From a phage, in sequence record PZ445448.1: a DNA stretch of 64,000 nt; one strand, 5' to 3'. The translations under genes and the position numbers were made by a program. Below, piece after piece: positions 2,127-62,897 of the stretch; positions within the stretch are counted from its first letter, which is position 1, and every line of letters starts with the position of its first letter. The notes below the pieces were generated by a model. That model was not told where the DNA came from. It did no database searches and saw only the letters and a program-made list of their open reading frames with translations.

Positions 2127-3349
2127 GCGTTATTCAACAATTCGCTAACCCGATGAATCCGCGTGAAACTGTTTTACTGGCTCACGGCATGATTAAACGC
2201 GTCAGCATCAAGCCTATCAAAGGTGCTGATCCTACAACAGGTATTAAAACCACTGTGTGGCAAGGTAAGAAAATTGAATCCAGCCACACCATCTCTTTAC
2301 TGATTTCTGAACTGGATTCCTCTGATAACCTACTTCAAGGTGGTGAAGAAGTTTGGATCAGTATGGGCGATAAGCTGCTTAAACCGGGTCATCAAGACTC
2401 TGTCTCTGTTAAAATTGATGACAAGTGGGAAACCGTAACGCCAGGATGGATCGTAAATATCCCTTTGAAGGCAAACGAGCATAACGGTAAGACCTACTAC
2501 AAAGGCTCACTGGCTAAGATGGTTAAGCTGGGTGCAGGAGAGGCTCCAGCAGCGACTCAGCAGCAAAAACAGCAACAAGGTGCACAATCACAAGGCCAGA
2601 AGCAGAAACCTCAGCAGAATGCCAATCAGGACGTTTTACGCATCTATGGTGATGTGACTCAGATTGTTGGCAACGTGGTTACTGTAAATGATCACAAGAT
2701 TGGCGAAGGTGCTATGGTTGTAACTGATGAGCAGCTTAAAGACCTGGTGGTAGGTGGTCGTGTTGCAGCCATTGTGGACAAAGACACCGGAAACATTATC
2801 AGTGGTTTCAAAGCCTACCCACCTAAGGCAGAGAACGGCACTCAAGGCCCTGGTGGCAAGCGTAAATCCTCTTACGACCCTATTGGTGTGGAGACGGGGC
2901 ATAGCATCAATGCGTTGCAGATCATCCTGGATCGTGGGTTTAAGGTAGACGACCCACTAGGCGTGGCTAAAACACTGCACGTAGTCACCATCGAGCTTAA
3001 GAAAGAGTATGCTCAAGCCACCAACCGAACTGAAGATGAAGTAGGTGCCAGTGTCGGTAATGCGGTGTTGAACGCTTGTCGCCGTATTGACAAGAAAACG
3101 AAAGTTGATGATTTTGCAGCGGCAATTACTGCAGAAGCAAAAGATGTCTTGACTAATCTGGCTGAGCCGTTGTACGATTGGATCAAGAACGGTGCTGGGT
3201 CAACTGACCATCAAGAACCTCAGGCTGCCAAACAGGAAGCAGCTCCACAGCAAAACACTGTAGACGCTCCTCCTGTAAATGATGGGGAAGATGACCCGAT
3301 GGATCAGAATCCAGCACAGTATGACTTCTGTGATGACATACCGTTTTAA
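2123..3349 (+). CDS. SSB-like protein with Gln-rich linker and C-terminal YDFCDDIPF tail
   Basis: C-terminus DFCDDIPF matches the conserved acidic tip of bacterial SSB (DFDDDIPF); ATGA overlap with upstream gene. Confidence 0.55.
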   Translation: MSVIQQFANPMNPRETVLLAHGMIKRVSIKPIKGADPTTGIKTTVWQGKKIESSHTISLLISELDSSDNLLQGGEEVWISMGDKLLKPGHQDSVSVKIDDKWETVTPGWIVNIPLKANEHNGKTYYKGSLAKMVKLGAGEAPAATQQQKQQQGAQSQGQKQKPQQNANQDVLRIYGDVTQIVGNVVTVNDHKIGEGAMVVTDEQLKDLVVGGRVAAIVDKDTGNIISGFKAYPPKAENGTQGPGGKRKSSYDPIGVETGHSINALQIILDRGFKVDDPLGVAKTLHVVTIELKKEYAQATNRTEDEVGASVGNAVLNACRRIDKKTKVDDFAAAITAEAKDVLTNLAEPLYDWIKNGAGSTDHQEPQAAKQEAAPQQNTVDAPPVNDGEDDPMDQNPAQYDFCDDIPF

Positions 3350-18489: not shown

Positions 18490-20950
18490 GCTCTTCCTCC
18501 TACCACAAACGGCCCAGCCTGGCAAGTGGAATAATTGACTAGCCATCAATCCCACACACTGTACAAATATACATGGAAAATAACTATTGCATAATTTTTC
18601 ATTGTGTGGTAGCAGGTCCATTTTTACCCGTTTTCTCTCTCAAAATTGCACGTAATGCCGCTATTGCACAAAATTTAACCTGATGCACATCTTCAATATC
18701 TTGTCAACAACTAAAAATCTTTATAAGTCATACACTTACACACTCACAAAAGCGTGTTCTACGTGAAAAATCGAGTATAACTATAGCCGCCAGATCTCAG
18801 AATTTACGTACGCTCACCATTCTATAGTCTGCTAAGTATTTATTCCAACCATGGAATAACGGAATAGTCAATACCTGCATAAAATAATTATTCGTGTAAA
18901 CTGCATAACATAAATCAGCTCAGGTGTCAACATTTTTCGTAAACAGTCCGAAATTGTCACGGTGAGTTATCATAAACAGAGAAATATTTAGTCGTCTAAT
19001 GTTTACTGTACATTACTATACTGACTGGAATCATTAGATGACTAAGAGAAAGATAAGAAATAATTAACAATACAATTATTTTATCTGTAACAATAAGGCA
19101 ACTATGCAAACGAATGGCATGGCGCGACGGAGTCGCGACATAATATAAAAGCAGTAACCATCACCCCCGTGATAGTTTGTCTGCAAACTATTAATCAGAT
19201 CATAGTTGCCTTGTATTTAGTTAATCATGACATAACAAGCAAGGCAACTATAGATCTTCTAATAGTTGCCCTGCTTTTATATTATGTCATAGAAACACCC
19301 GAAGGGGTGACCAAAGGTCACCTGGCATGGCCAGTGAAAGATTATTAACTTGTTAATTGTTAACTTGCTAATTGTTTTCATGCAAACGAATGTCATGGCT
19401 TATCCTATCTGTGTAAACAGTCAAGGTGTAAACTATCCAGGCGTAAACAATCTATACGTGAACAGTGAAACATGAAATAATAACAGTCGTTATTGTGTCG
19501 AAAGTGTATAAGGTGTCATAGTATGTCAGACAAGTTTTTCTCCTCTTTGTCAAGTGCTGCATGAAAAATTTACAAGCTTGTATGGTAGCATTTTTGCTGC
19601 CCTGTTTACATTCAGTTGTGTATGTATAACCCTTGTTGTGTGGGCGTTTAGACGTCTAGACGGTTGGAAGTCCGCAGGTTAATATCTAATCTATTGGCTG
19701 CTAACTATATCCCACACAAATAGTAAGAAATATAATTGTTATGTGCGTAAACAGTAACTCATGTTATCAATCCCTGTATGTATCGCCAGTGGTGCGCATA
19801 ATGGGTATTATGTTAAATTGCCCGTAATGATAACTATTCTCACAATGATAGGTATTCTCATTCACTCCCACAAGATAGGTTGCAAATGTTGTGCCACTGT
19901 GTGAACGGCCTCACCTATTAATTTGCCTCACTGCCTCGATATTTGAGAATTGTTATAAGAATGAGAAGTATTCCCATTTCGTCCGCCTGGCAGCACTCCA
20001 GTCGCTACCGCTCATGACAGGGCAGAACTAGACCCTCTTCAGATATTTCTGGCTGACTCTTCAGGCCTGTGTGGGAAAAGCCAACCTCTCCGGCGGCGGG
20101 GAGGGGTTTGTCAGGAAAATTGCAGGTCAATTAAAAAATTTACGTGGTATATGAAGCGCTCTTCAGGTAAGGCATGTATTATGGGATGAAACCCTCTTCA
20201 GGCAATGATATTTGTGGGTGTGATATTTGCTGGAAAGCCAGATATGACGGGACTCCCGGCGGGGCAGGGGTAGTACAGACAGGGGAAATATGGAGGATGT
20301 AGTTGGGGGAGTTGATCAAACAGGTAGAGTATGGAATATGTTACAAGTATGTTAAATATGGAGGGTGGATATCTGTAGGATTTATGTGTAAAATCAAAGA
20401 CTTAAGTGGTGTTGTGGTATTTTCTATAAATAATTCAAGTTTAATAGGTAATATTTGTCTCTATCCGCTTTGTGTGGTAAACAAATTCAGATGGTGTTGG
20501 TTTACAAGTGTATACATAATATACAAATTAAAGATACAAGAAACCCCCCTCCCCCTTCGGCTACCATTCACCTTTTCCTCTGACTGGTACTTAAACACTT
20601 ATTCAGACTCTTCAGGTTATCACCCATATATCATATGGCAGTGACTGGTGTCCTCCGGCCCCTCTTTCGTCACCCGTCCGCTTCGCCATGCTAATGCCAT
20701 AGCCAATGGTTCGGTTGTTCACCCTGTTCACTCAGGTGTATCTCCATACCCCTTCAAACCGAAGAGAACAGAAAACCCGAATTACTCGGTAAAAGAAAAG
20801 AGAAGAACTTAATTTTATCAGGATAGGCAAGAATGTCAAGGCATGACTGCTCACTAAACAAGCAAACAGTCATGTGTGGGAGGTAAGTGATTGTGGTGGT
20901 AGGAAATTTAGTTGAAAGATGTGTTATAGGTGCTCCCAGCACTTTAGCCG
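18490..20950. repeat. 2.4-kb gene-free repeat-dense region (GTAAACAG iterons, AAGGCAACTAT sites, CTCTTCAGG repeats)
   Basis: no ORF with SD on either strand; multiple short repeat families. Confidence 0.6.
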
Positions 20951-24888: not shown

Positions 24889-24964
24889 TCAGTCTCCCGT
24901 CTTGTTAAGATGAAGGTATTATTTCACACAGGGTTGGCGTTGTCAACACCTGTGTGCAAGAAAA

Positions 24965-25360
24965 TTACTGAAACAGTGCGGATAAATTACCTTCTGGTGG
25001 GAACTTATCTGCCAAAAACGGTGTTAGCACAGTAGCCTTCTGAAGATCTGGGGTCCACTCGTTGTTCAGAACATCCCAGTAGTACGCAATGTTGCTGTGT
25101 GGGTGCCGCATTACGAACTTTTTCCCTTCGTAGTCATCTGAAACCTCTACAGAAGAAATAACAACAGAATCTTCAAGGGTTTCTTCATAGAAAGATCCAC
25201 CTTCAAATTTCCAACGAGATGCAAGAGCTCCTGCCTTGAACGCTGCAGATAACGGACTGTCTGCAAGAACATACATTTCTTGCACTCTGTCGCTGCGATC
25301 TTTGCTTCTTACGTTGTATACAGTATCTGAGCTATACTCAACACGGTATAGGCTTACCAT
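24965..25360 (-). CDS. hypothetical protein, paralogue of 27167-27565
   Basis: shared segments HP.S...YW......WTP with 27167-27565. Confidence 0.45.
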   Translation of the reverse strand: MVSLYRVEYSSDTVYNVRSKDRSDRVQEMYVLADSPLSAAFKAGALASRWKFEGGSFYEETLEDSVVISSVEVSDDYEGKKFVMRHPHSNIAYYWDVLNNEWTPDLQKATVLTPFLADKFPPEGNLSALFQ

Positions 25361-25719
25361 TACCGCACCTCCTCAATAACTTCCACATCTGAGCCCACCA
25401 CAAATGCAAAAGGACAGGTTTCATGAAAGACATCCGGATCGCCGCCAAGCTTGCTAACAATCTCTCCACCACTAATAAACACAAGCTCACCGATATTCAT
25501 CAGATTGCTGAAATAGTACCCATAATGATTAAAGAATGCAGCAGGGTCAGGTAGACTAGTAGCCTCAAGCACTACATCAGTTGAGGTTACTTTCTTATCA
25601 TAACCTCTCGCCTTTTGAGATGCAAGATCTGCAGAATCCTCAGGCGACCGGAGATGCACAGGAATTGTTTCACCAATAAAGCGTACTTTCATATTATCAC
25701 CCAACAACCATAGCTTCAA
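25360..25719 (-). CDS. hypothetical protein
   Basis: ORF in array. Confidence 0.45.
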   Translation of the reverse strand: MKLWLLGDNMKVRFIGETIPVHLRSPEDSADLASQKARGYDKKVTSTDVVLEATSLPDPAAFFNHYGYYFSNLMNIGELVFISGGEIVSKLGGDPDVFHETCPFAFVVGSDVEVIEEVR

Positions 25720-25960
25720 AAGGGGTCATGAACGAATAAACGGCATCATCATCTGCTTCAGGGAATGCTCCCAAAGACTTCATGTCTGAGCCCTTGACAA
25801 ATACAAGGTTTTGATCAAAAGCTTCTTGAGGATCAATCCGATACATATTTCGTAGAATATCGCCTACCTCCTCATCAAGAGGTGAGTATGCTGTGCACGT
25901 TTTTCCGATCAAGCTTTGAGAATCAGGGTATCCACCTGAAGTTTTAAAATAAACAATCAT
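25697..25960 (-). CDS. hypothetical small protein (divergent member of MKVK family)
   Basis: shared VKG.D...GA motif. Confidence 0.4.
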   Translation of the reverse strand: MIVYFKTSGGYPDSQSLIGKTCTAYSPLDEEVGDILRNMYRIDPQEAFDQNLVFVKGSDMKSLGAFPEADDDAVYSFMTPFEAMVVG

Positions 25961-26051
25961 ATAGTATCACCTCTGGTAAGAGATTGGGATTCCTTTCCCA
26001 CAAATAATTACAAACCTTCCTTATCGAGGAAGTATGCTAATCCAAGCAGGA

Positions 26052-26321
26052 TTATTCCTCTACAATCTCATACACATCCGGAGTTACAATCAACTCTTCT
26101 CCGTTACCCGGTGCAACAAACACCACCATGCCTTCAGGTGTGTGCTTTTTAGCCATCTCGATAACATCTTCTCGCAGAGCTGGCTCCATCAGATCAAAAC
26201 CTTCACCCAGGGCATCACGAACCACCTTCATATAGTCAACTGGTTGTGCTTCGACAATCATACCTTCAACCAGTCCACAGTTTTTGTCTGCCAGCTCAGT
26301 TTTGAATAATTTAATTTTCAT
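26052..26321 (-). CDS. hypothetical small acidic protein
   Basis: ORF in array. Confidence 0.45.
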   Translation of the reverse strand: MKIKLFKTELADKNCGLVEGMIVEAQPVDYMKVVRDALGEGFDLMEPALREDVIEMAKKHTPEGMVVFVAPGNGEELIVTPDVYEIVEE

Positions 26322-26458
26322 TTAGAGGTCTCCTCAATTATTTGATATTAATAGCCGTAACCTAACACATTAACTACAACTGCGATTGCAAACATAATTT
26401 CAAAGCATGCAATCTCTACATTTGGAACTAATTTCTTGATCACACCCATTGTAGCACC

Positions 26459-26776
26459 TCATTCTCTAAAGTCAATCTTTACTTTGCCTTTCCCCTTACC
26501 TTTCTTTCCACCGCATTTAGCCAGTTGACGTGCTGCAACATCTACCATACGGTCAGTTGCCTCGTAAGCATCACTGCCTTTAGCTTTGGCAATAACTTCT
26601 TTTCCAGAATTGTCAAAAATGAACGCCATAACTTCCTGGTGATCATTTTCAACTTTTACACTCACACGTGCATAGTTGGCAGAGGGATGCAAACGCTCCA
26701 GCTTAGACATTTTGTGGGAAATGAAAGACACCATACCTTCAGTGATTTCTACGTTGCCAGTGATTTCAATTTGCAT
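26459..26776 (-). CDS. hpf: ribosome hibernation promoting factor homologue (HPF/YfiA/RaiA family)
   Basis: MQIEITGNVEITEG...KVE...DAYEATDRMVDVAARQLAK aligns with E. coli HPF MQLNITGNNVEITEA...KVEK...DMYAAIDGLIDKLARQLTK. Confidence 0.65.
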   Translation of the reverse strand: MQIEITGNVEITEGMVSFISHKMSKLERLHPSANYARVSVKVENDHQEVMAFIFDNSGKEVIAKAKGSDAYEATDRMVDVAARQLAKCGGKKGKGKGKVKIDFRE

Positions 26777-26858
26777 AACGTGTTCCTTTTAAAGAAGAGG
26801 GAACCAAACCCTCTTTGAAAACAATGATACTAAATCTGAAGCGTTGTGTCAACAGTTT

Positions 26859-27149
26859 TTACAGATTGTTGTCGATAGTTTTTAAAATATCCACAGCAAG
26901 ATCTGCCATTTTTCGAACATACTCTGCAAACTCAACAGGATCCTTGATCAAAGAATTCACAGGGTCGTACCCTAGAGCGTTCAAAATGGCTGCAGCATCT
27001 ACAACCTTCTCATCATTTGCGAAGATCTCTCCATCAAACTTGTAGGTCCATTTTGAGTCAATCTTGGCAGGGAATGATTGGTCAACGCTTGTTACACCAT
27101 CCTTTTTAAACGCTCCGGTGTTATCAGTGTCTAGAACTAAATCCATCAT
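26859..27149 (-). CDS. hypothetical protein
   Basis: ORF in array. Confidence 0.45.
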   Translation of the reverse strand: MMDLVLDTDNTGAFKKDGVTSVDQSFPAKIDSKWTYKFDGEIFANDEKVVDAAAILNALGYDPVNSLIKDPVEFAEYVRKMADLAVDILKTIDNNL

Positions 27150-27166
27150 GTTAGTACCTCACCGTT

Positions 27167-27565
27167 TCAGTTTAGCTTTTCTTCAACAACCCCATAGCTC
27201 GGGACAGAGTCAAGAGCTTTCTGGTTTAAAAGTGGTGTAGCAGAATCTGCAAACGGTGTCCAAGTTTTTGTTCTGGCATTCCAGTAATGCTTCACTCTGG
27301 AATCTGGATGCACTATAACAAAAACTTTTTCACTTGTCAACACATTAATTTCTTCTACACCCTTGCTGATAATTTCTCCGTCATAGCCACCAGTCTGGTA
27401 TCCTTCGTACCAGGTTCTTGCATATGCATAGCCAGCCTGCCAGCATGCAGCCTCCTCCGAGGTGGAGACTACGTAGAAGTCTTTCTCAAATTCTGGGATA
27501 CGCCCTTGCTTTACGCTCCAAGCTCCGCGAATTTTCATTGTAACTTTGAACAGTTTATTTTTCAC
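27167..27565 (-). CDS. hypothetical protein, paralogue of 24965-25360
   Basis: shared motifs with 24965-25360. Confidence 0.45.
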   Translation of the reverse strand: MKNKLFKVTMKIRGAWSVKQGRIPEFEKDFYVVSTSEEAACWQAGYAYARTWYEGYQTGGYDGEIISKGVEEINVLTSEKVFVIVHPDSRVKHYWNARTKTWTPFADSATPLLNQKALDSVPSYGVVEEKLN

Positions 27566-27577
27566 AACGGTTACCCA

Positions 27578-27832
27578 TCACAGCTCTACAATCTCTGCAT
27601 CTGACCCTGCCCCAAAGGCATAATAGGATTCTTCCCCGAAATAATATTCCGGTGCACCAGCAGCGATCAGGTCTGATCCCAAGATAAACACCACGTTGTG
27701 GCCTACATAACTGTGATGTTGCCGCACAGGATCATCCCACGGCAACCCTTCAAAGTATACCGCAGGAACGACCTTTCCCTTCAGGAAGGATTGTCCCAAG
27801 TAGACGTTAGAATCAAGAATTTTAACCTTCAT
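27578..27832 (-). CDS. hypothetical small protein, MKVK family
   Basis: MKVKILDSNVYLGQ..LKGKVV....ILGSDLIAAGA..E.VEL paralogous to 27822-28049 and 31469-31702. Confidence 0.5.
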   Translation of the reverse strand: MKVKILDSNVYLGQSFLKGKVVPAVYFEGLPWDDPVRQHHSYVGHNVVFILGSDLIAAGAPEYYFGEESYYAFGAGSDAEIVEL

Positions 27833-28049
27833 TCTCGTCCTCCACTATCTCTACATCCTCACCAAGGGCAAAGTTGTAGGTCCACTGGCTGTCAAAGCAG
27901 TCCTGAGATGCACCAGCGGAAATAAGATCTGCACCTTTTATTTTTAAAAGGTCAGGATAATCTTCGTTAGGGATAGCGGTAAACACTTTCCCCACTAAGG
28001 GCTCCTGACCAATATAGAAGCTTGAATCTAAAACTTTAACTTTCATCAA
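27822..28049 (-). CDS. hypothetical small protein, MKVK family
   Basis: MMKVKVLDSSFYIGQ..LVGKVF....IKGADLISAGA. Confidence 0.5.
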   Translation of the reverse strand: MMKVKVLDSSFYIGQEPLVGKVFTAIPNEDYPDLLKIKGADLISAGASQDCFDSQWTYNFALGEDVEIVEDENEG

Positions 28050-28333
28050 CGGTCTCCCTCAGGCGGTTGTGGGACGTAAACACTGTTACGAATATCGTCA
28101 GCAGTGTAGTAATAAGTGGTTCCAACCCTATCTCGGGCTGCAATGTACTCTGCTATACCAATAAGTGCCATTGATTTGGTGGCGTATCTTCCCCACTCGT
28201 TAGCTCCCCAGTAGAATTTAGACCAGTAGGGAATAATACCGAACAAATATACCTTTTGACGAACTTCCCAGTAAGTGCCTTTTCCGACAAGTTTAAACTC
28301 TACTTCACTACTGTTAATCTTTTTCATTATCAA
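28046..28333 (-). CDS. hypothetical protein
   Basis: ORF in array. Confidence 0.45.
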   Translation of the reverse strand: MIMKKINSSEVEFKLVGKGTYWEVRQKVYLFGIIPYWSKFYWGANEWGRYATKSMALIGIAEYIAARDRVGTTYYYTADDIRNSVYVPQPPEGDR

Positions 28334-28626
28334 TCTCCCTCTACCGTGGTCGGATTGTCAGTAAGAAATTGAGCATTGGCTGGAGGCACGCCTGACATTT
28401 TCCACACAACCATAAGTTTGTAACCAGGAACTCTATTAAGTGCAGATCGAGTAGAGTTTGTGCACGTATACTTTCGCTTTCCAAACCCGTTCTCCATCAT
28501 AATCCAGTACCCAGTATCTTTGTCACCAGGTATCGGTAGACCACCTTCATCAACCCACTGAATGGACCACGGCACGATGGCTACAGCTTTATATTTAAAC
28601 TTTTTAAACCACTCAAAAAGTTTCAT
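28330..28626 (-). CDS. hypothetical protein
   Basis: ORF in array. Confidence 0.45.
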   Translation of the reverse strand: MKLFEWFKKFKYKAVAIVPWSIQWVDEGGLPIPGDKDTGYWIMMENGFGKRKYTCTNSTRSALNRVPGYKLMVVWKMSGVPPANAQFLTDNPTTVEGD

Positions 28627-28721
28627 AATTCAGCCTCGCATAGACATAATCACTATAAACAGGCAAACAATGAATCCGAATGCCACGCCACCCATAAACG
28701 TTAATATTGATGCAATCATAG

Positions 28722-28907
28722 TCAATCAGCCTCGCTTGGCAACTCTTCTACCTTAACATGCCGAAAAGTGTTACCGTAATGGTTGATCCATGACATCAGC
28801 TCGCTTTCTTGCTCTTCCTCTGGGATGAACTCTCGAATGCTGACAAGTTTTAAGAAAACCCAATCACAATCTGCACCCATTCTACCAGACAGGCAATAGT
28901 GCTTCAT
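28722..28907 (-). CDS. hypothetical small protein (start at MKHYCLS)
   Basis: AGGTGGGGG SD before internal ATG. Confidence 0.4.
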   Translation of the reverse strand: MKHYCLSGRMGADCDWVFLKLVSIREFIPEEEQESELMSWINHYGNTFRHVKVEELPSEAD

Positions 28908-28923
28908 AAAACCCCCACCTGGT

Positions 28924-29118
28924 TTAGAATATTGCTTCTTCCATTGCACCTGAGAGCAACAAAGAGGTGATCTGGCTAACATTCATCTCAGACTCTACTT
29001 CCTCCCCTTTGAAAGGTTCGCGGCAGAATAGGACTGTTTCAGGACTTTTACTTCGAACAATATAATACAAATCATTCAATGTGTTGTAGTAATAAGTGTT
29101 AAAACGTAAGTTTTTCAT
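28924..29118 (-). CDS. hypothetical small protein
   Basis: ORF in array. Confidence 0.4.
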   Translation of the reverse strand: MKNLRFNTYYYNTLNDLYYIVRSKSPETVLFCREPFKGEEVESEMNVSQITSLLLSGAMEEAIF

Positions 29119-29402
29119 TTTCTAGTCCCCTTCTTAGATTTTTGTGTAGAAACGCTTTCTGCAATACGAGACAAACGTTCTTCTGAAGCCTTGCCTATTC
29201 CAGGTTTTTTGAGTGGGTTATCTTTATGACCACAATCCAATTGGATATTGGATACCTCTCCAACCTTGTAAGTCAATTCTAGCAAAAGGTTGTCGTCCTT
29301 GTCAAATGTTCTTACGATAAATTTTTTATCGTTCTCCTGAACTTCGTATCGGGTACCCGCAGTATACAGCATGGTGCCATCCGCATAGGATATCCAGATC
29401 AT
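29115..29402 (-). CDS. hypothetical protein
   Basis: ORF in array. Confidence 0.45.
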   Translation of the reverse strand: MIWISYADGTMLYTAGTRYEVQENDKKFIVRTFDKDDNLLLELTYKVGEVSNIQLDCGHKDNPLKKPGIGKASEERLSRIAESVSTQKSKKGTRK

Positions 29403-29746
29403 TGAACCTCCTTCTGCTGCAACAGCATTAACTCTTTGTTGGAGATTTTTACTGCTGTTTTTATTGTTCCATCTTCACGAAACCACGACCAGAACTCTAC
29501 AGTGTCCCCACTGTCAAGCAAAGCATACCCGTGGTAGAAGTCTTTGTCCTTAGACAGTTTCTCATCTATGTCTGCATCGACACATTCGTGATCCATAGCA
29601 TTTTGCCTGAATGCATCGGTTATACCAATGCACGCCTTGCTCTCAAGACTGGTATATCCGATATCTTTTAATTCAGTTTCCCAAGTCCAGTACCCTATAA
29701 AAGCTAAAACAGCTACCCACATTAATAACGTTTTAATCTTTGGCAT
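29399..29746 (-). CDS. hypothetical exported or membrane-anchored protein
   Basis: N-terminal hydrophobic segment LLMWVAVLAFIGYW. Confidence 0.45.
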   Translation of the reverse strand: MPKIKTLLMWVAVLAFIGYWTWETELKDIGYTSLESKACIGITDAFRQNAMDHECVDADIDEKLSKDKDFYHGYALLDSGDTVEFWSWFREDGTIKTAVKISNKELMLLQQKEVQ

Positions 29747-29808
29747 TCTCTCTACCTCTTTCTTAGTTTATTTCACTATGGCACATCCTTTGTGCCATAT
29801 CTCAACCA

Positions 29809-30270
29809 CTACTTAAATAGTAGTCCAAAATAGTGCAAAATTAACAGAAGTTGAACTACACCTAGTGCAACGGCGAGTATGTTAATCTTAGAATCGAAAA
29901 ACTTCTTAACTTTTACTCTAAAAGGTTCCTTAATGTCCTTTACGATCCTATTTATAGATGATTTCATATCCCTGATTACCATCCTAAACATTAGAGACGG
30001 ATCTTCCTTCTCTGTAATAGAATCGAAAACATACTCTCTTCGGTCATAAGGACCTCCAGATCTGCGTATTAACCTCTCCACAGAGACCTCGTACGACACA
30101 CCTGTAACGTAATCATCTATGATAAGTAGTGACGGGTCTTTATCGTCCAAGGGTATTAAAGTTATCTTTCCAGATTTTGTTAAAATTTCCCCTTTTTCAA
30201 GCAAGGTGTACCAATGCTCTCTGCCAAGACTGTTGAGGCACGTTTTTACATATTTAACAAACATCGTCAC
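29809..30270 (-). CDS. hypothetical protein with C-terminal TM helix
   Basis: C-terminus ILAVALGVVQLLLILHYFGLLF. Confidence 0.45.
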   Translation of the reverse strand: MTMFVKYVKTCLNSLGREHWYTLLEKGEILTKSGKITLIPLDDKDPSLLIIDDYVTGVSYEVSVERLIRRSGGPYDRREYVFDSITEKEDPSLMFRMVIRDMKSSINRIVKDIKEPFRVKVKKFFDSKINILAVALGVVQLLLILHYFGLLFK

Positions 30271-30452
30271 CCCTCATCGCACGTCTGATATAACCACTCT
30301 ATAAAATCTTGATACCATTCGCCCTCTGAGCGCTCCGTAGGCCAATAATCTTCACCCTCTCGTGCATTAAAATCTGAGTATTCAACTTTCCACTCCTTTA
30401 CCAGCTCGTGGAGAAGGTTTTCAGCCTGCTCTAAAGATTTATTTTTTACCAT
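30267..30452 (-). CDS. hypothetical small acidic protein (start at second ATG)
   Basis: AAGGAG SD before second ATG. Confidence 0.4.
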   Translation of the reverse strand: MVKNKSLEQAENLLHELVKEWKVEYSDFNAREGEDYWPTERSEGEWYQDFIEWLYQTCDEG

Positions 30453-30671
30453 TGCTGTCTCCTTTTTCAAGATAGTTATACATCAGAACTGCACCACCTA
30501 AGATGGCTACCAGTAACAATACCCCAGATAGCATCTCAATAAACATGGCTTGAAACACTGGAAGGCCTCCCTAAATTAACGCACCATTTTAAATACATGC
30601 TCTTTTCCCATAAAGGTGCCTGGCTAAGATCTGCGTAGAACGCAATCTCTTTAAGAACAGTATAAACAGTT

Positions 30672-30908
30672 TTAGGTGCGGTCTCCATCCCTACCCTCCT
30701 TTTTCTCCTTACGGATATTCTTGTAGTAATCAACCAAGCACATTATCACGATGAAGATAACAACAGGCCAAAAAGGTGCAGCAGTGATGATGGTGATAAA
30801 ATCATCAAACTTCACCCTTCGTCTGGACACGATGCATACACCTGTCAAGAATACCGCTGTTATAACGGACATTACCAGGTAACCTATTAGCACAACATTT
30901 ATACTCAT
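30672..30908 (-). CDS. hypothetical membrane protein (2 TM)
   Basis: two hydrophobic segments. Confidence 0.4.
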   Translation of the reverse strand: MSINVVLIGYLVMSVITAVFLTGVCIVSRRRVKFDDFITIITAAPFWPVVIFIVIMCLVDYYKNIRKEKKEGRDGDRT

Positions 30909-30938
30909 TGGTCCTCCCTTTGTAGGTTAAATTGTATA

Positions 30939-31472
30939 CTACAAATGGTCGCTGAGGGTGTCAAGAAAATTATCCCGTTCTTTCTCAGAGTTTTCATGTG
31001 TGTAGCTGAAAAACATATCGAGAATAACCTTATTGATATATTCCAGCTCCTCTGTGTTCAGATGCTTAGCAGGATCTACAATGACATCCCAAATATCATA
31101 CAGACCGCACTCATGATACCCATAACGCCACTCAATTGTCAAGCTGAGCGGCAAATCTTTACCTTCACAAACAACCTTCCATCTACATATGTTGGTATCT
31201 GGTCGTACCTGTGCACGGTACACCTGCACAAAATCCAATTTGAATTTGAGGTACTCGTCATACAATTTAAGCACAAAGCTCTCGATTTGTGGAGACACTT
31301 TTGCAGCAAACTGTGCGTATTTGTACTTGCACTGGATGATCTTTCTGCGTTTTGCAGTTAAATTTTTTGCCGCCAGTTGTTCTTCAGTGTATCTCCACCT
31401 ACGATCAACAAACGCAACAGGGTCTTTGTCCCCATAGAGGTCTTCCCAGTTAATCAGAAGCATACCTGTCAC
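30939..31472 (-). CDS. hypothetical protein
   Basis: ORF in array. Confidence 0.45.
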   Translation of the reverse strand: MTGMLLINWEDLYGDKDPVAFVDRRWRYTEEQLAAKNLTAKRRKIIQCKYKYAQFAAKVSPQIESFVLKLYDEYLKFKLDFVQVYRAQVRPDTNICRWKVVCEGKDLPLSLTIEWRYGYHECGLYDIWDVIVDPAKHLNTEELEYINKVILDMFFSYTHENSEKERDNFLDTLSDHL

Positions 31473-31702
31473 TCCTCCACAACTTCAAGGCCTTTACCGC
31501 CTCGCTCTGGCAGATTACTTAAAGATAGGTAATACATATAATCAGGAGAGATCCTGCCAGACTCTGCACCTGCAGCTAGTAAATCCTTCCCTTTAACCAG
31601 GACAACATTCTCGTTTGCAGATAGCCGTTTTGCTTCCACAATTTTACCAACACAGTCAACCAAGGAAGGGTACCCTAAATCTGTAAGAAATTTAACTTTC
31701 AT
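31469..31702 (-). CDS. hypothetical small protein, MKVK family
   Basis: MKVKFLTDLGYPSL..VGKIV....VKGKDLLAAGA..LEVVEE. Confidence 0.45.
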   Translation of the reverse strand: MKVKFLTDLGYPSLVDCVGKIVEAKRLSANENVVLVKGKDLLAAGAESGRISPDYMYYLSLSNLPERGGKGLEVVEE

Positions 31703-31739
31703 GCTACCTCCTACCTACCGTCCCTGGTAAGATAAATTA

Positions 31740-32138
31740 TTACTGAACAGAGCGCGGTGCTGGGAAGGATAACTCTTCTAAAGAGAAGATTTCATTTCCT
31801 ACCACCCAAGTTGCTGGGTCATCTGGATCAACAGGTTGGATAATCATTACCTCATCCGCCTCGCACACACGTTTCCCACCCATAGTAGCGTCAGCCACTA
31901 ACATACGCGGCTCTTCAGAAATGCACAGGTAGCCACCTCGGCCCACTGTTCCTTCCACGGGATCCTGCCCTTTGACCACAATGAATACCTTCTCTCCTGT
32001 GGAGATATTACTTTTCACACTAACAGTTTGACCAACTTTAGATGTACCGATCTTGGTGGCTTCAAACATTAAATCCCGAATTACTGTTGCATAGTTGCCG
32101 GACACTTTCTTACCTTCTTTAGTAATCTCAATCTTCAT
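31740..32138 (-). CDS. hypothetical protein
   Basis: ORF in array. Confidence 0.45.
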   Translation of the reverse strand: MKIEITKEGKKVSGNYATVIRDLMFEATKIGTSKVGQTVSVKSNISTGEKVFIVVKGQDPVEGTVGRGGYLCISEEPRMLVADATMGGKRVCEADEVMIIQPVDPDDPATWVVGNEIFSLEELSFPAPRSVQ

Positions 32139-62084: not shown

Positions 62085-62159
62085 GCCCTGTTAGCTTAGT
62101 GGATAAAGCAGCGGCCTTCTAAGCCGTTGACACTGGTTCGAGTCCAGTACGGGGTGCCA
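62085..62159 (+). tRNA. tRNA-Arg (anticodon TCT)
   Basis: cloverleaf folded by hand: acceptor GCCCTGT/ACGGGGT, anticodon loop CTTCTAA, T-loop TTCGAGT, encoded CCA. Confidence 0.75.
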
Positions 62160-62163
62160 AATT

Positions 62164-62250
62164 GGGGAGTTATCCCGTAGAGGTAGCGGTGTAGACTGTA
62201 AATCTATTGTCATTGCGACTCGGGTGGTTCGACTCCACCACTCCCCACCA
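62164..62250 (+). tRNA. tRNA-Tyr (anticodon GTA), long variable arm
   Basis: acceptor GGGGAGT/ACTCCCC, anticodon loop CTGTAAA, T-loop TTCGACT, CCA. Confidence 0.7.
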
Positions 62251-62364
62251 AATTTATATTTTTAGATGCATAAATAATACAGATAATGGCATTGATATTT
62301 ATCGTCGTTTATACTAGTCACTAACTGCTCGAAAATCAGTGTCATTATCAGTATAATTTATAAA

Positions 62365-62455
62365 GGAGGGTAGGGAGCAATGGTGCTCAAGCGGTCTTGA
62401 AAACCGTCCCGTTGAGGATGACTCGATGATGGTTCGATTCCATTACTCTCCGCCA
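62365..62455 (+). tRNA. tRNA-Ser (anticodon TGA), long variable arm
   Basis: acceptor GGAGGGT/ACTCTCC, anticodon loop CTTGAAA, T-loop TTCGATT, CCA. Confidence 0.65.
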
Positions 62456-62553
62456 CATTGTTGACCTTGTAATTAAGCGAAAGCCGGAAGCAGAACCGGA
62501 TTATCAAATGTTACAGTCGTCATCGCCGACTAGCAACATGGTCAACATACTGA

Positions 62554-62650
62554 GCTAGGTAAGCCCTTTGGCAAGGGCGAGGATTTTTAATCCTGAAAAT
62601 AGACGAGGTAGTCGTTGAATACATAGGTGGTTCGATTCCATCACCTAGCA
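62554..62650 (+). ncRNA. 97-nt tRNA-like element with irregular anticodon region
   Basis: perfect 7-bp acceptor GCTAGGT/ACCTAGC, D-arm, T-loop TTCGATT, but about 10-24 nt too long and no clean anticodon stem. Confidence 0.35.
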
Positions 62651-62657
62651 CCTTTTT

Positions 62658-62733
62658 GCTGATGTAGCACAATCGGTAGTGCAATTGATTTGTAATCAAT
62701 AGGTTGTAGGTTCAAGTCCTGCCATCAGCACCA
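62658..62733 (+). tRNA. tRNA-Thr (anticodon TGT)
   Basis: acceptor GCTGATG/CATCAGC, anticodon stem ATTGA/TCAAT loop TTTGTAA, CCA. Confidence 0.8.
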
Positions 62734-62734
62734 A

Positions 62735-62809
62735 GGCCCTGTAGCTGGAAGGTTCAAGCAAGCGACTCATAATCGCCAGACGGTGGTTCAATTCCACCCA
62801 GGGCCACCA
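62735..62809 (+). tRNA. tRNA-Met or Ile2 (anticodon CAT), elongator type
   Basis: acceptor GGCCCTG/CAGGGCC with G1-C72, anticodon loop CTCATAA, CCA. Confidence 0.7.
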
Positions 62810-62820
62810 AATAGTAAATA

Positions 62821-62897
62821 CTCCGCGTAGCTCAGCTTGGTAGAGCGCCTGATTTGGGATCAGGAGGTCGAGTGTTCGAATCACTCCGTGGAGACCA
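62821..62897 (+). tRNA. tRNA-Pro (anticodon TGG)
   Basis: D-arm GCTCAGCTTGGTAGAGC, anticodon stem CCTGA/TCAGG loop TTTGGGA, T-loop TTCGAAT, CCA. Confidence 0.8.

Follow-up and report, generated by a model that had tools for sequence, protein, structure and literature searches.

The window analysed here, a stretch of 64,000 nucleotides of phage DNA (record PZ445448.1), carries on its minus strand a long array of small open reading frames (ORFs), among which are families of paralogous genes. The paralogs arose by old duplications within an array of non-late accessory genes, in an rV5-like Vequintavirus. An earlier note on this DNA had described local duplication and divergence of tiny genes in the array; that description was correct, and the duplication is more extensive than it supposed, with 12 genes in three families (A, B and, tentatively, C) and an A-A-B order that occurs twice. 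The reading we favour, and hold with moderate confidence, is that these genes encode old, individually maintained, non-late accessory proteins that would act by binding other proteins. This analysis adds a fifth member to family A, family C as a tentative group, the repetition of the A-A-B cassette, the predicted acidic, SH3-like barrel of family A, its association with replication modules elsewhere, and the finding of purifying selection.

Families of paralogs in the array

We compared all 561 six-frame ORFs of at least 35 amino acids in the window with one another, the non-coding frames serving as an internal null. The top pair in the whole window was A1 (27578-27832, 84 amino acids; all genes of the array are on the minus strand) with A2 (27822-28049, 74-75 amino acids, annotated ATG at 28046), at E=9e-14, and the second-best pair was B2 (27167-27565, 132 amino acids) with B1 (24965-25360, 131 amino acids), at E=2.3e-7. 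A3 (31469-31702, 77 amino acids) matched A2 with E=2.4e-5. A profile of A1-A3 recovered from the window the divergent member A4 (25697-25960, 87 amino acids; E=8e-7) and the ORF 25360-25719 (E=2e-5), which is A5 (25360-25692, 110 amino acids from the ATG at 25692). A5 was again recovered, with E=6.7e-6, by a 34-sequence profile from which it had been excluded. The earlier note had listed A1 to A4; these ORFs exist at their minus-strand coordinates and their relationship is borne out by BLASTP, profile and PHROG comparisons, but A5 had been overlooked.

Comparison of ortholog alignments with hhalign, which covered 20 gene profiles, gave 99.9% for A1-A2, 95-96% for A3 against A1 or A2, 73.5% for A5 against A1 or A2, 64% for A1-A4, and 95% for B1-B2. 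The PHROG grouping, made independently of this work, puts A1-A3 together in phrog_5009 and B1 and B2 in phrog_7379. Full-length matches to the phrog_5009 hidden Markov model (HMM) were obtained for A1 (3.6e-32), A2 (1.3e-36) and A3 (8.3e-36), with a marginal match for A4 (1.2e-4), and all 34 wider family A sequences match it as well. A5 had no direct match to phrog_5009 and is linked to family A only through the window and family profiles. B1 (2.1e-66) and B2 (5.2e-74) each match phrog_7379 over 131 of its 131 profile positions, and A4 and A5 have clusters of their own, phrog_13920 and phrog_13661; direct HMM matches overall range from E 1e-32 to 1e-75. The clusters behind A and B are thus already catalogued, without function: all four carry the label 'unknown function', and in PHROGs family A is divided among three clusters, with neither fold nor function given and no note of paralogy.

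In the alignment of family A, A1 carries a 16-residue insert between strands 2 and 3. B1 and B2 share the motif HP.S....YW......WTP; the earlier note had recognised both the family and the motif, for which its spacing (HP.S...YW...WTP) was schematic. Neither Pfam nor NCBIfam gave a match for any A, B or C member, and a word-indexed protein search with A and B returned near-identical Vequintavirus proteins only.

Could these similarities reflect chance or composition, in short acidic ORFs that happen to share a start MK(V/I)K and an end E(I/V)VE? Part of the visible pattern does look convergent, as families A and C both start with MK.K and end with E.VE and have no profile-level link, and the statistics of family C are weak. 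Against this stand the E-values of A and B, 1e-5 to 1e-14 in a comparison with non-coding frames as control, the independent PHROG grouping, and the same motif in 46 external clusters. Judged on these sequence comparisons, an explanation by chance is already refuted for families A and B, and as an account of the whole pattern we regard it as scarcely credible.

Family C is probable but not proven at the sequence level, and it would add an overlooked group of five genes to the picture of local duplication. Its candidate members are C1 (23661-23948, 95 amino acids), C2 (23948-24277, 109), C3 (24277-24627, 116, net charge -22), C4 (24628-24888, 85-86) and C5 (26052-26321, 89). When a profile of C3 and C4 was run against the 561 ORFs, the three best non-self matches were C1, C2 and C5, with E-values of 0.006, 0.02 and 0.34, and the search converges on exactly these five genes once the inclusion threshold is relaxed to 0.03. 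With hhalign, C3-C4 reached 34% and C1-C3 and C1-C4 about 10%, the C-C pairs ranking next after the A and B pairs. Among families A, B and C hhalign found no profile-level link, so that the MK.K...E.VE look common to A and C is not evidence of homology. Homology of A and C was rejected also in direct comparison: the window profiles align over 11 N-terminal residues only, at 3% probability, and ortholog-profile pairs reach at most 4%.

Gene order and a repeated cassette

Read along descending coordinates, which is the direction of transcription, the genes are arranged as A3 ... A2-A1-B2-y-HPF-C5-A4-A5-B1-(promoter-like site)-C4-C3-C2-C1. A3 is a singleton upstream of the main cluster, A2, A1 and B2 are the first, second and third genes of cassette 1, and A4, A5 and B1 occupy the same places in cassette 2. 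In 200,000 random orderings of the array's 37 genes, two A-A-B triplets had P=1.1e-4. Between the cassettes lie y (26859-27149), which encodes an acidic protein of 96 amino acids unrelated to the three families, and, next to it, a gene for a ribosome hibernation factor homolog (S30AE/HPF, PF02482, E=1.8e-12; 26459-26776), which is so annotated in MZ501102 and also lies outside families A, B and C. Cassette 2 is flanked by C5 before it and C4 after it, and the best partner of C5 is C4.

The A2 stop and A1 start overlap by 11 nucleotides, A4 and A5 are spaced by 4 nucleotides, and the A5 stop overlaps the B1 start in a common TAATG with GAGGAGG in front. Overlapping or abutting stops and starts of this kind are an arrangement typical of translational coupling, which the junctions suggest here. 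In a consensus scan the coding strand showed sigma-70-like promoters in which the TTGACA box is perfect, among them sites in the gaps 26852-26824 and 24946-24918. The first (TTGACA-17-TATCAT, 26824-26852, minus strand) lies upstream of the hibernation factor gene and cassette 2, and the second (TTGACA-17-AATAAT, 24918-24946, minus strand) in the gap between B1 and C4; each is a candidate promoter by its consensus match alone, with agreement at 11 of 12 positions. From 20 to 35 kb the coding strand has 18 copies of TTGACA and the other strand two. The rV5 genome paper reports 33 sigma-70-type (E. coli-type) promoters, assigns the array to the transcription unit that carries the genes for replication and nucleotide metabolism, apart from the late genes, and makes no mention of paralogs or duplications (PMC3606486).

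We propose a block duplication of a cassette of three or four genes, A-A-B(-C), followed by tandem amplification of C; the pair of y and the hibernation factor gene would now separate cassette 1 from C5. A block duplication explains both the repeated order and the affinity of C4 and C5.

Two observations concern single elements of this region. The -35 box of the promoter-like site between B1 and C4 lies inside an 8-bp inverted repeat, CACACAGG-N16-CCTGTGTG (24918-24980, minus strand), which may serve as a terminator or, in overlap with the promoter, as an operator. C5 is labelled 'sigma 54 modulation factor' in several records, e.g. NC_041869 gp082 and MN850612. In Pfam, C5 matched neither S30AE/PF02482 nor any other family, PF02482 being found only in the neighbouring gene at 26459-26776, and the label was probably carried over from that neighbour.

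Retention and selection across the genus

Escherichia phage nomine is 99.6% identical to region 24900-31800, which places the window among the rV5-like Vequintavirus. At the megablast level this 6.9-kb region is matched by 121 phage records, nearly all of them Vequintavirus, i.e. rV5-like myoviruses of E. coli, and at least 80% of it is covered at 90% identity or more in 114 of the 121. In the annotated relatives MZ501102 and NC_041869 the same stretch is a long minus-strand run of 'hypothetical proteins', interrupted by the hibernation factor homolog and bounded upstream by genes for a DNA methyltransferase, a ClpP-like protease and PhoH. All 12 paralog genes are present in each of the four genomes inspected in detail, practically all complete records gave two tblastn matches per family, 117 records have a C5 with 95-100% identity, and copy number is constant in nearly all of about 120 isolates. 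Eighteen of the matching records are named 'Campylobacter phage' (MG0656xx; host C. jejuni), with A2, B2 and C5 proteins that share about 90-100% identity with those of the window; by this sequence identity, the host label looks doubtful.

Between paralogs the synonymous sites are saturated (proportion of synonymous differences, pS, 0.66-0.92). The duplications are therefore old, and the ratio of nonsynonymous to synonymous substitution (dN/dS) between paralogs is without meaning. Between orthologs, pairwise Nei-Gojobori comparison of the window with APECc02, FV3 and Aya, the most divergent isolate, gave dN/dS of about 0 to 0.3 for every member, with pooled ranges of 0.11-0.15 in family A, 0.02-0.06 in family B and 0.07-0.13 in family C, no different from the 0.11-0.18 of other array genes. 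Every copy is under purifying selection and kept across the genus.

The earlier note had taken the duplications as typical of loci under arms-race selection and had suggested dN/dS and presence or absence among related phages as checks. On this view the paralogs would be anti- or counter-defence proteins diversified in an ongoing conflict with the host, each tracking a different host immune protein. The proteins are indeed small, acidic and apparently transcribed from host-type promoters, and they are lineage-specific: in Seunavirus FENT2 and Mydovirus KB57, which represent two sister genera, no homolog of A, B or C was detected in the 16 kb downstream of ClpP. The divergent relatives described below also show replacement of the B2 slot, a split A1 and faster evolution of some members, and a hybrid A gene occurs in two metagenomic contigs. 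An accessory role in interaction with the host would be compatible with the lineage-specificity, the changes in the B2 slot and A1, and the hybrid, and it is possible. The checks themselves gave the arms-race inference no support. Ortholog dN/dS of 0.02-0.15 is indistinguishable from that of neighbouring genes, the paralog pairs being uninterpretable in this respect; the presence and absence expected of an arms race is not seen, given the retention of the region and the constancy of copy number and of C5 noted above; and the duplications are old. Ongoing diversifying selection was not seen with pairwise gene-wide dN/dS. Our literature search turned up nothing that connects Vequintavirus genes of this region with anti-defence activity, nor any paper that deals with the function of the A, B or C genes, with the timing of their expression or with a part in anti-defence. 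We consider this explanation unlikely. The old and conserved copies of this array show that 'duplicated tiny genes' are not always a sign of an active arms race.

The divergent relatives L021 (GCA_002973135.1) and L022, whose ClpP is 69% identical, keep the order A3 ... A2-A1 ... HPF-C5-A4-A5-B1, and L022 also has C4-C1; the duplicated set would thus predate the genus. Identities to the window genes are 29-76%, A1, B1 and C3 being among the faster evolvers (29-44%). In the slot of B2 both have an unrelated basic protein of about 100 amino acids, probably helical (L021, 7264-7584; L022, 3332-3622), and in L022 A1 is split into fragments at 3070-3204 and 3216-3329. B2 is 29% identical to the B1 of L021 and 28% to the B1 of the window, whereas the two B1 orthologs are 39% identical. 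As B2 is equidistant from both B1s and the B1 orthologs are closer to each other, the B duplication predates the split of L021 from the window, and B2 was later lost or replaced there.

In the metagenomic Vequintavirus contigs L011 and L012 (4001-4213 in each) a single 70-residue A2/A1 hybrid replaces the pair. The crossover lies at a 9-nucleotide identity, GCTGGTGCA, encoding the conserved AGA, and on this sequence evidence the hybrid is the product of unequal crossover. The Chi sequence of E. coli is GCTGGTGG, and GCTGGTGCA matches it at seven of eight bases. Further rare variants are a B2-y fusion (metagenomic P0012) and truncated forms of B2. Separately, two blocks of the array (28046-28626 and 30672-31472, minus strand) are mosaic, with protein identities to FV3 of 62-74% and 52-55%, respectively, and of 85-99% to phage Aya, which is otherwise more divergent; the pattern suggests allelic replacement by recombination.

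Predicted fold and charge

Structure prediction, which the earlier note had also suggested, gave a confident result for family A and a poor one for family B. The AlphaFold2 model of A2, made from a 10-sequence alignment, has a predicted local distance difference test score (pLDDT) of 91 and a predicted template-modelling score of 0.79. It is an SH3-like barrel of five strands with a short helix after strand 3, and as a highly bent antiparallel five-strand fold it falls within the definition of SH3-like small beta-barrels of about 60-70 residues. The conserved strand-helix motif of the family is G-x-D-L-I-x-A-G-A. In a Foldseek search of predicted viral structures, A2 matched uncharacterised small phage proteins only. 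One is BFVD A0A5B9MW73 (87 residues, TM 0.80) of Shigella phage CM1, a Vequintavirus, which by its length is presumably the A4 ortholog; several other matches have near-consecutive accession numbers and may come from one other phage.

Known SH3-like barrels, including PsaE, the KOW domains of Spt5/NusG, eukaryotic SH3 domains and the C-terminal domain of retroviral integrase, are 4-23% identical to family A, which differs from them in the G-x-D-L-I-x-A-G-A helix after strand 3, in being very acidic and in having no Pfam match. The modelled likeness is at the level of fold and is not evidence of homology or shared function. For no A member was there a KOW (PF00467), SH3 (PF00018) or other Pfam match at E<=1, and a profile search of PDB sequences with family A gave nothing relevant. 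Isoelectric points are 4.05-5.4 in family A (median 4.5 in 34 wider members), 4.05-4.7 in family C, 4.7 for B1 and 7.8 for B2, and the net charge of family A proteins runs from -1 to -10.

The model of family B is unreliable (pLDDT 57). Its matches to eL20/LX-like and PurS-like alpha/beta folds were distrusted for this reason. A Kelch or WW-like assignment, which the motifs GGYDG and YW...WTP had brought to mind, was also rejected: PDB matches with E=2e-8 to designed SAKe Kelch proteins are six identical repeat matches of about 3 bits, summed, with no significant single stretch, GGYDG is absent from B1, and Pfam gave no WW or Kelch match.

Family A in other phages

A full HMMER scan of 1.84 billion representative proteins found family A in 46 clusters at E<1e-3, phage-only among the clusters scanned. 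Nearly all are 65-87 amino acids long, and they share MKVKLL-GGY-G---GKVV-A----I-G-DLI-AGA----Y-F---E-E-VEE. Fused A domains occur in P0032 (two) and P0028 (three), and in P0040, P0045, P0049 and P0058 there is no recognisable domain besides A. P0059 (1140 amino acids), a low-complexity repeat protein, was set aside as a false positive. Among isolated phages the family is found in Vequintavirus, Vibrio phage CHOED, a Proteus podovirus and one other coliphage, while families B and C were confined to Vequintavirus records in tblastn searches.

Tandem A arrays occur elsewhere too: among IMG/VR contigs of 40-50 kb, L020 has five copies and L017 three; CHOED has two. The A copies adjoin DNA polymerase A in L018, L019, L020 and CHOED and a primase-polymerase in L017, and in integrase-bearing contigs they lie in the early or recombination region; the exception is L016, where the A copy adjoins head genes. 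In CHOED (L005, 4557-5409) an ORF for a homing endonuclease of HNH and helix-turn-helix (HTH) type is in frame with an A domain and is followed by a second, free-standing A gene.

Such contexts raise the question of whether family A is itself a DNA- or RNA-binding SH3-like domain of the replication or transcription machinery, comparable to Sso7d, KOW, Tudor or the integrase C-terminal domain. The nearby polymerase and primase genes and the in-frame HNH-HTH endonuclease of CHOED point that way. The charge of the proteins does not: the acidity described above is unfavourable for nucleic-acid binding, and no Pfam KOW or SH3 match was found. The in-frame A domain of CHOED, moreover, has its own internal ATG with GGAG 6 nucleotides upstream, an arrangement in which a homing endonuclease could have been inserted before an A-A tandem rather than functionally fused to it. 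We consider a nucleic-acid-binding role improbable.

How the proteins may act

If, as we favour, the paralogs are accessory binding proteins, they would act by binding and not by catalysis, no enzyme domain being detectable in A, B or C. Neighbouring A paralogs would probably associate with each other, which is suggested by the existence of fused A-A and A-A-A polypeptides elsewhere, and they may also associate with the translationally coupled B, where the tight coupling suggests a common complex. The most likely targets of small acidic proteins made from host-type promoters would be basic proteins of the host or phage, e.g. those handling nucleic acids, to be sequestered or modulated during takeover or replication; direct binding of nucleic acid by family A is made less likely by its acidity. 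Since every copy is under purifying selection, each should have a role of its own, and if each paralog has gained its own non-redundant partner, this would explain the retention.

There are precedents for such action, and the acidity accords with them: many small, acidic proteins of phages bind basic proteins of the host. Gp5.5, gp5.7 and gp5.9 of T7 are small acidic inhibitors of host factors encoded beside the T7 DNA polymerase gene, and Gp2, Ocr and p56 are further acidic phage inhibitors. None of them has a sequence or confident structural relation to family A, and the analogy is one of action only. Large lytic phages are also known to expand paralogs in plastic accessory regions, such as the 'hyperplastic regions' of T4-like phages, which resemble this array in their clusters of tiny ORFans between core modules, local duplications and mosaic replacement. 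The array differs from them in that its paralog set is unusually stable throughout the genus and in that the duplication seems to have involved a multi-gene cassette and not single genes.

Several points weigh against the account that we favour. Its mechanism is one that we infer from fold, charge, context and analogy. A block duplication predicts that A2 should be closest to A4 and A1 to A5, yet the closest relative of A1 is A2, and vice versa, and no A pair is weaker than A4-A5; the closeness of A1 and A2 is unexplained by block duplication, so that gene conversion or separate tandem duplications are needed, and the A2/A1 hybrid indicates that such exchange between neighbours does happen. 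Family C is weak, with hhalign values of at most 34% and a relaxed HMM inclusion threshold. The model of family B is unreliable. B2 is missing from the divergent relatives, and the double A-A-B arrangement is thus not universal. Finally, small ORFs of every kind gather in replication modules, and the association of family A with polymerases may lack functional meaning.

A more specific version holds that A-A-B(-C) is a functional unit, in which a pseudo-dimeric SH3-like scaffold of A proteins and the coupled B would form a host-takeover complex, the cassette having been block-duplicated to serve a second target. We rate this as doubtful. If it were true, family A would be a new phage-specific class of acidic SH3-like domains tied to replication modules, whose members might inhibit, for instance, host enzymes of DNA processing or defence.

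The gene for the hibernation factor homolog allows another interpretation, that A, B and C act with it in remodelling or silencing host ribosomes. It stands between the cassettes, a placement conserved in L011, L012, L021 and L022, and SH3-like barrels similar to A occur in the ribosomal proteins L24, eL14 and eL6. The structural matches of family B are unreliable, however, ribosome structures abound in the PDB, both folds are of a generic kind, and the relatives of family A in other phages adjoin polymerases, not translation genes. We regard a ribosomal role as highly improbable.

Whichever way the proteins act, the feature is real but ordinary, a set of old, conserved ORFan paralog families in a well-sequenced phage genus, and the refinements made here are useful for annotation and the design of experiments but not surprising. 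About 120 sequenced rV5-like phages, among them biocontrol, phage therapy and E. coli O157 typing phages, carry all twelve genes, and the three families with the repeated cassette reduce twelve ORFans to three problems. The cassette grouping also suggests sets of proteins for co-expression, with A2, A1 and B2 as one set and A4, A5 and B1 as another. Family A is compact, confidently folded, phage-only and found beside polymerases in unrelated phages, and one functional result would transfer widely.

Other features of the window

Outside the array, an adjacent pair of paralogs lies on the plus strand at 152-406 and 410-730 (BLASTP E=1e-5, 30% identity over 77 amino acids). Near the switch from plus- to minus-strand genes, about 1.7 kb (18621-20303) contain no ORF of at least 60 amino acids and have the window's lowest guanine-plus-cytosine content (0.38); this segment may be the 'non-coding' box drawn in the rV5 genome paper. 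Seven tRNA genes are clustered at 62085-62897 on the plus strand, and for one of them (62554-62652) ARAGORN calls a four-base anticodon and leaves the amino-acid identity undetermined.

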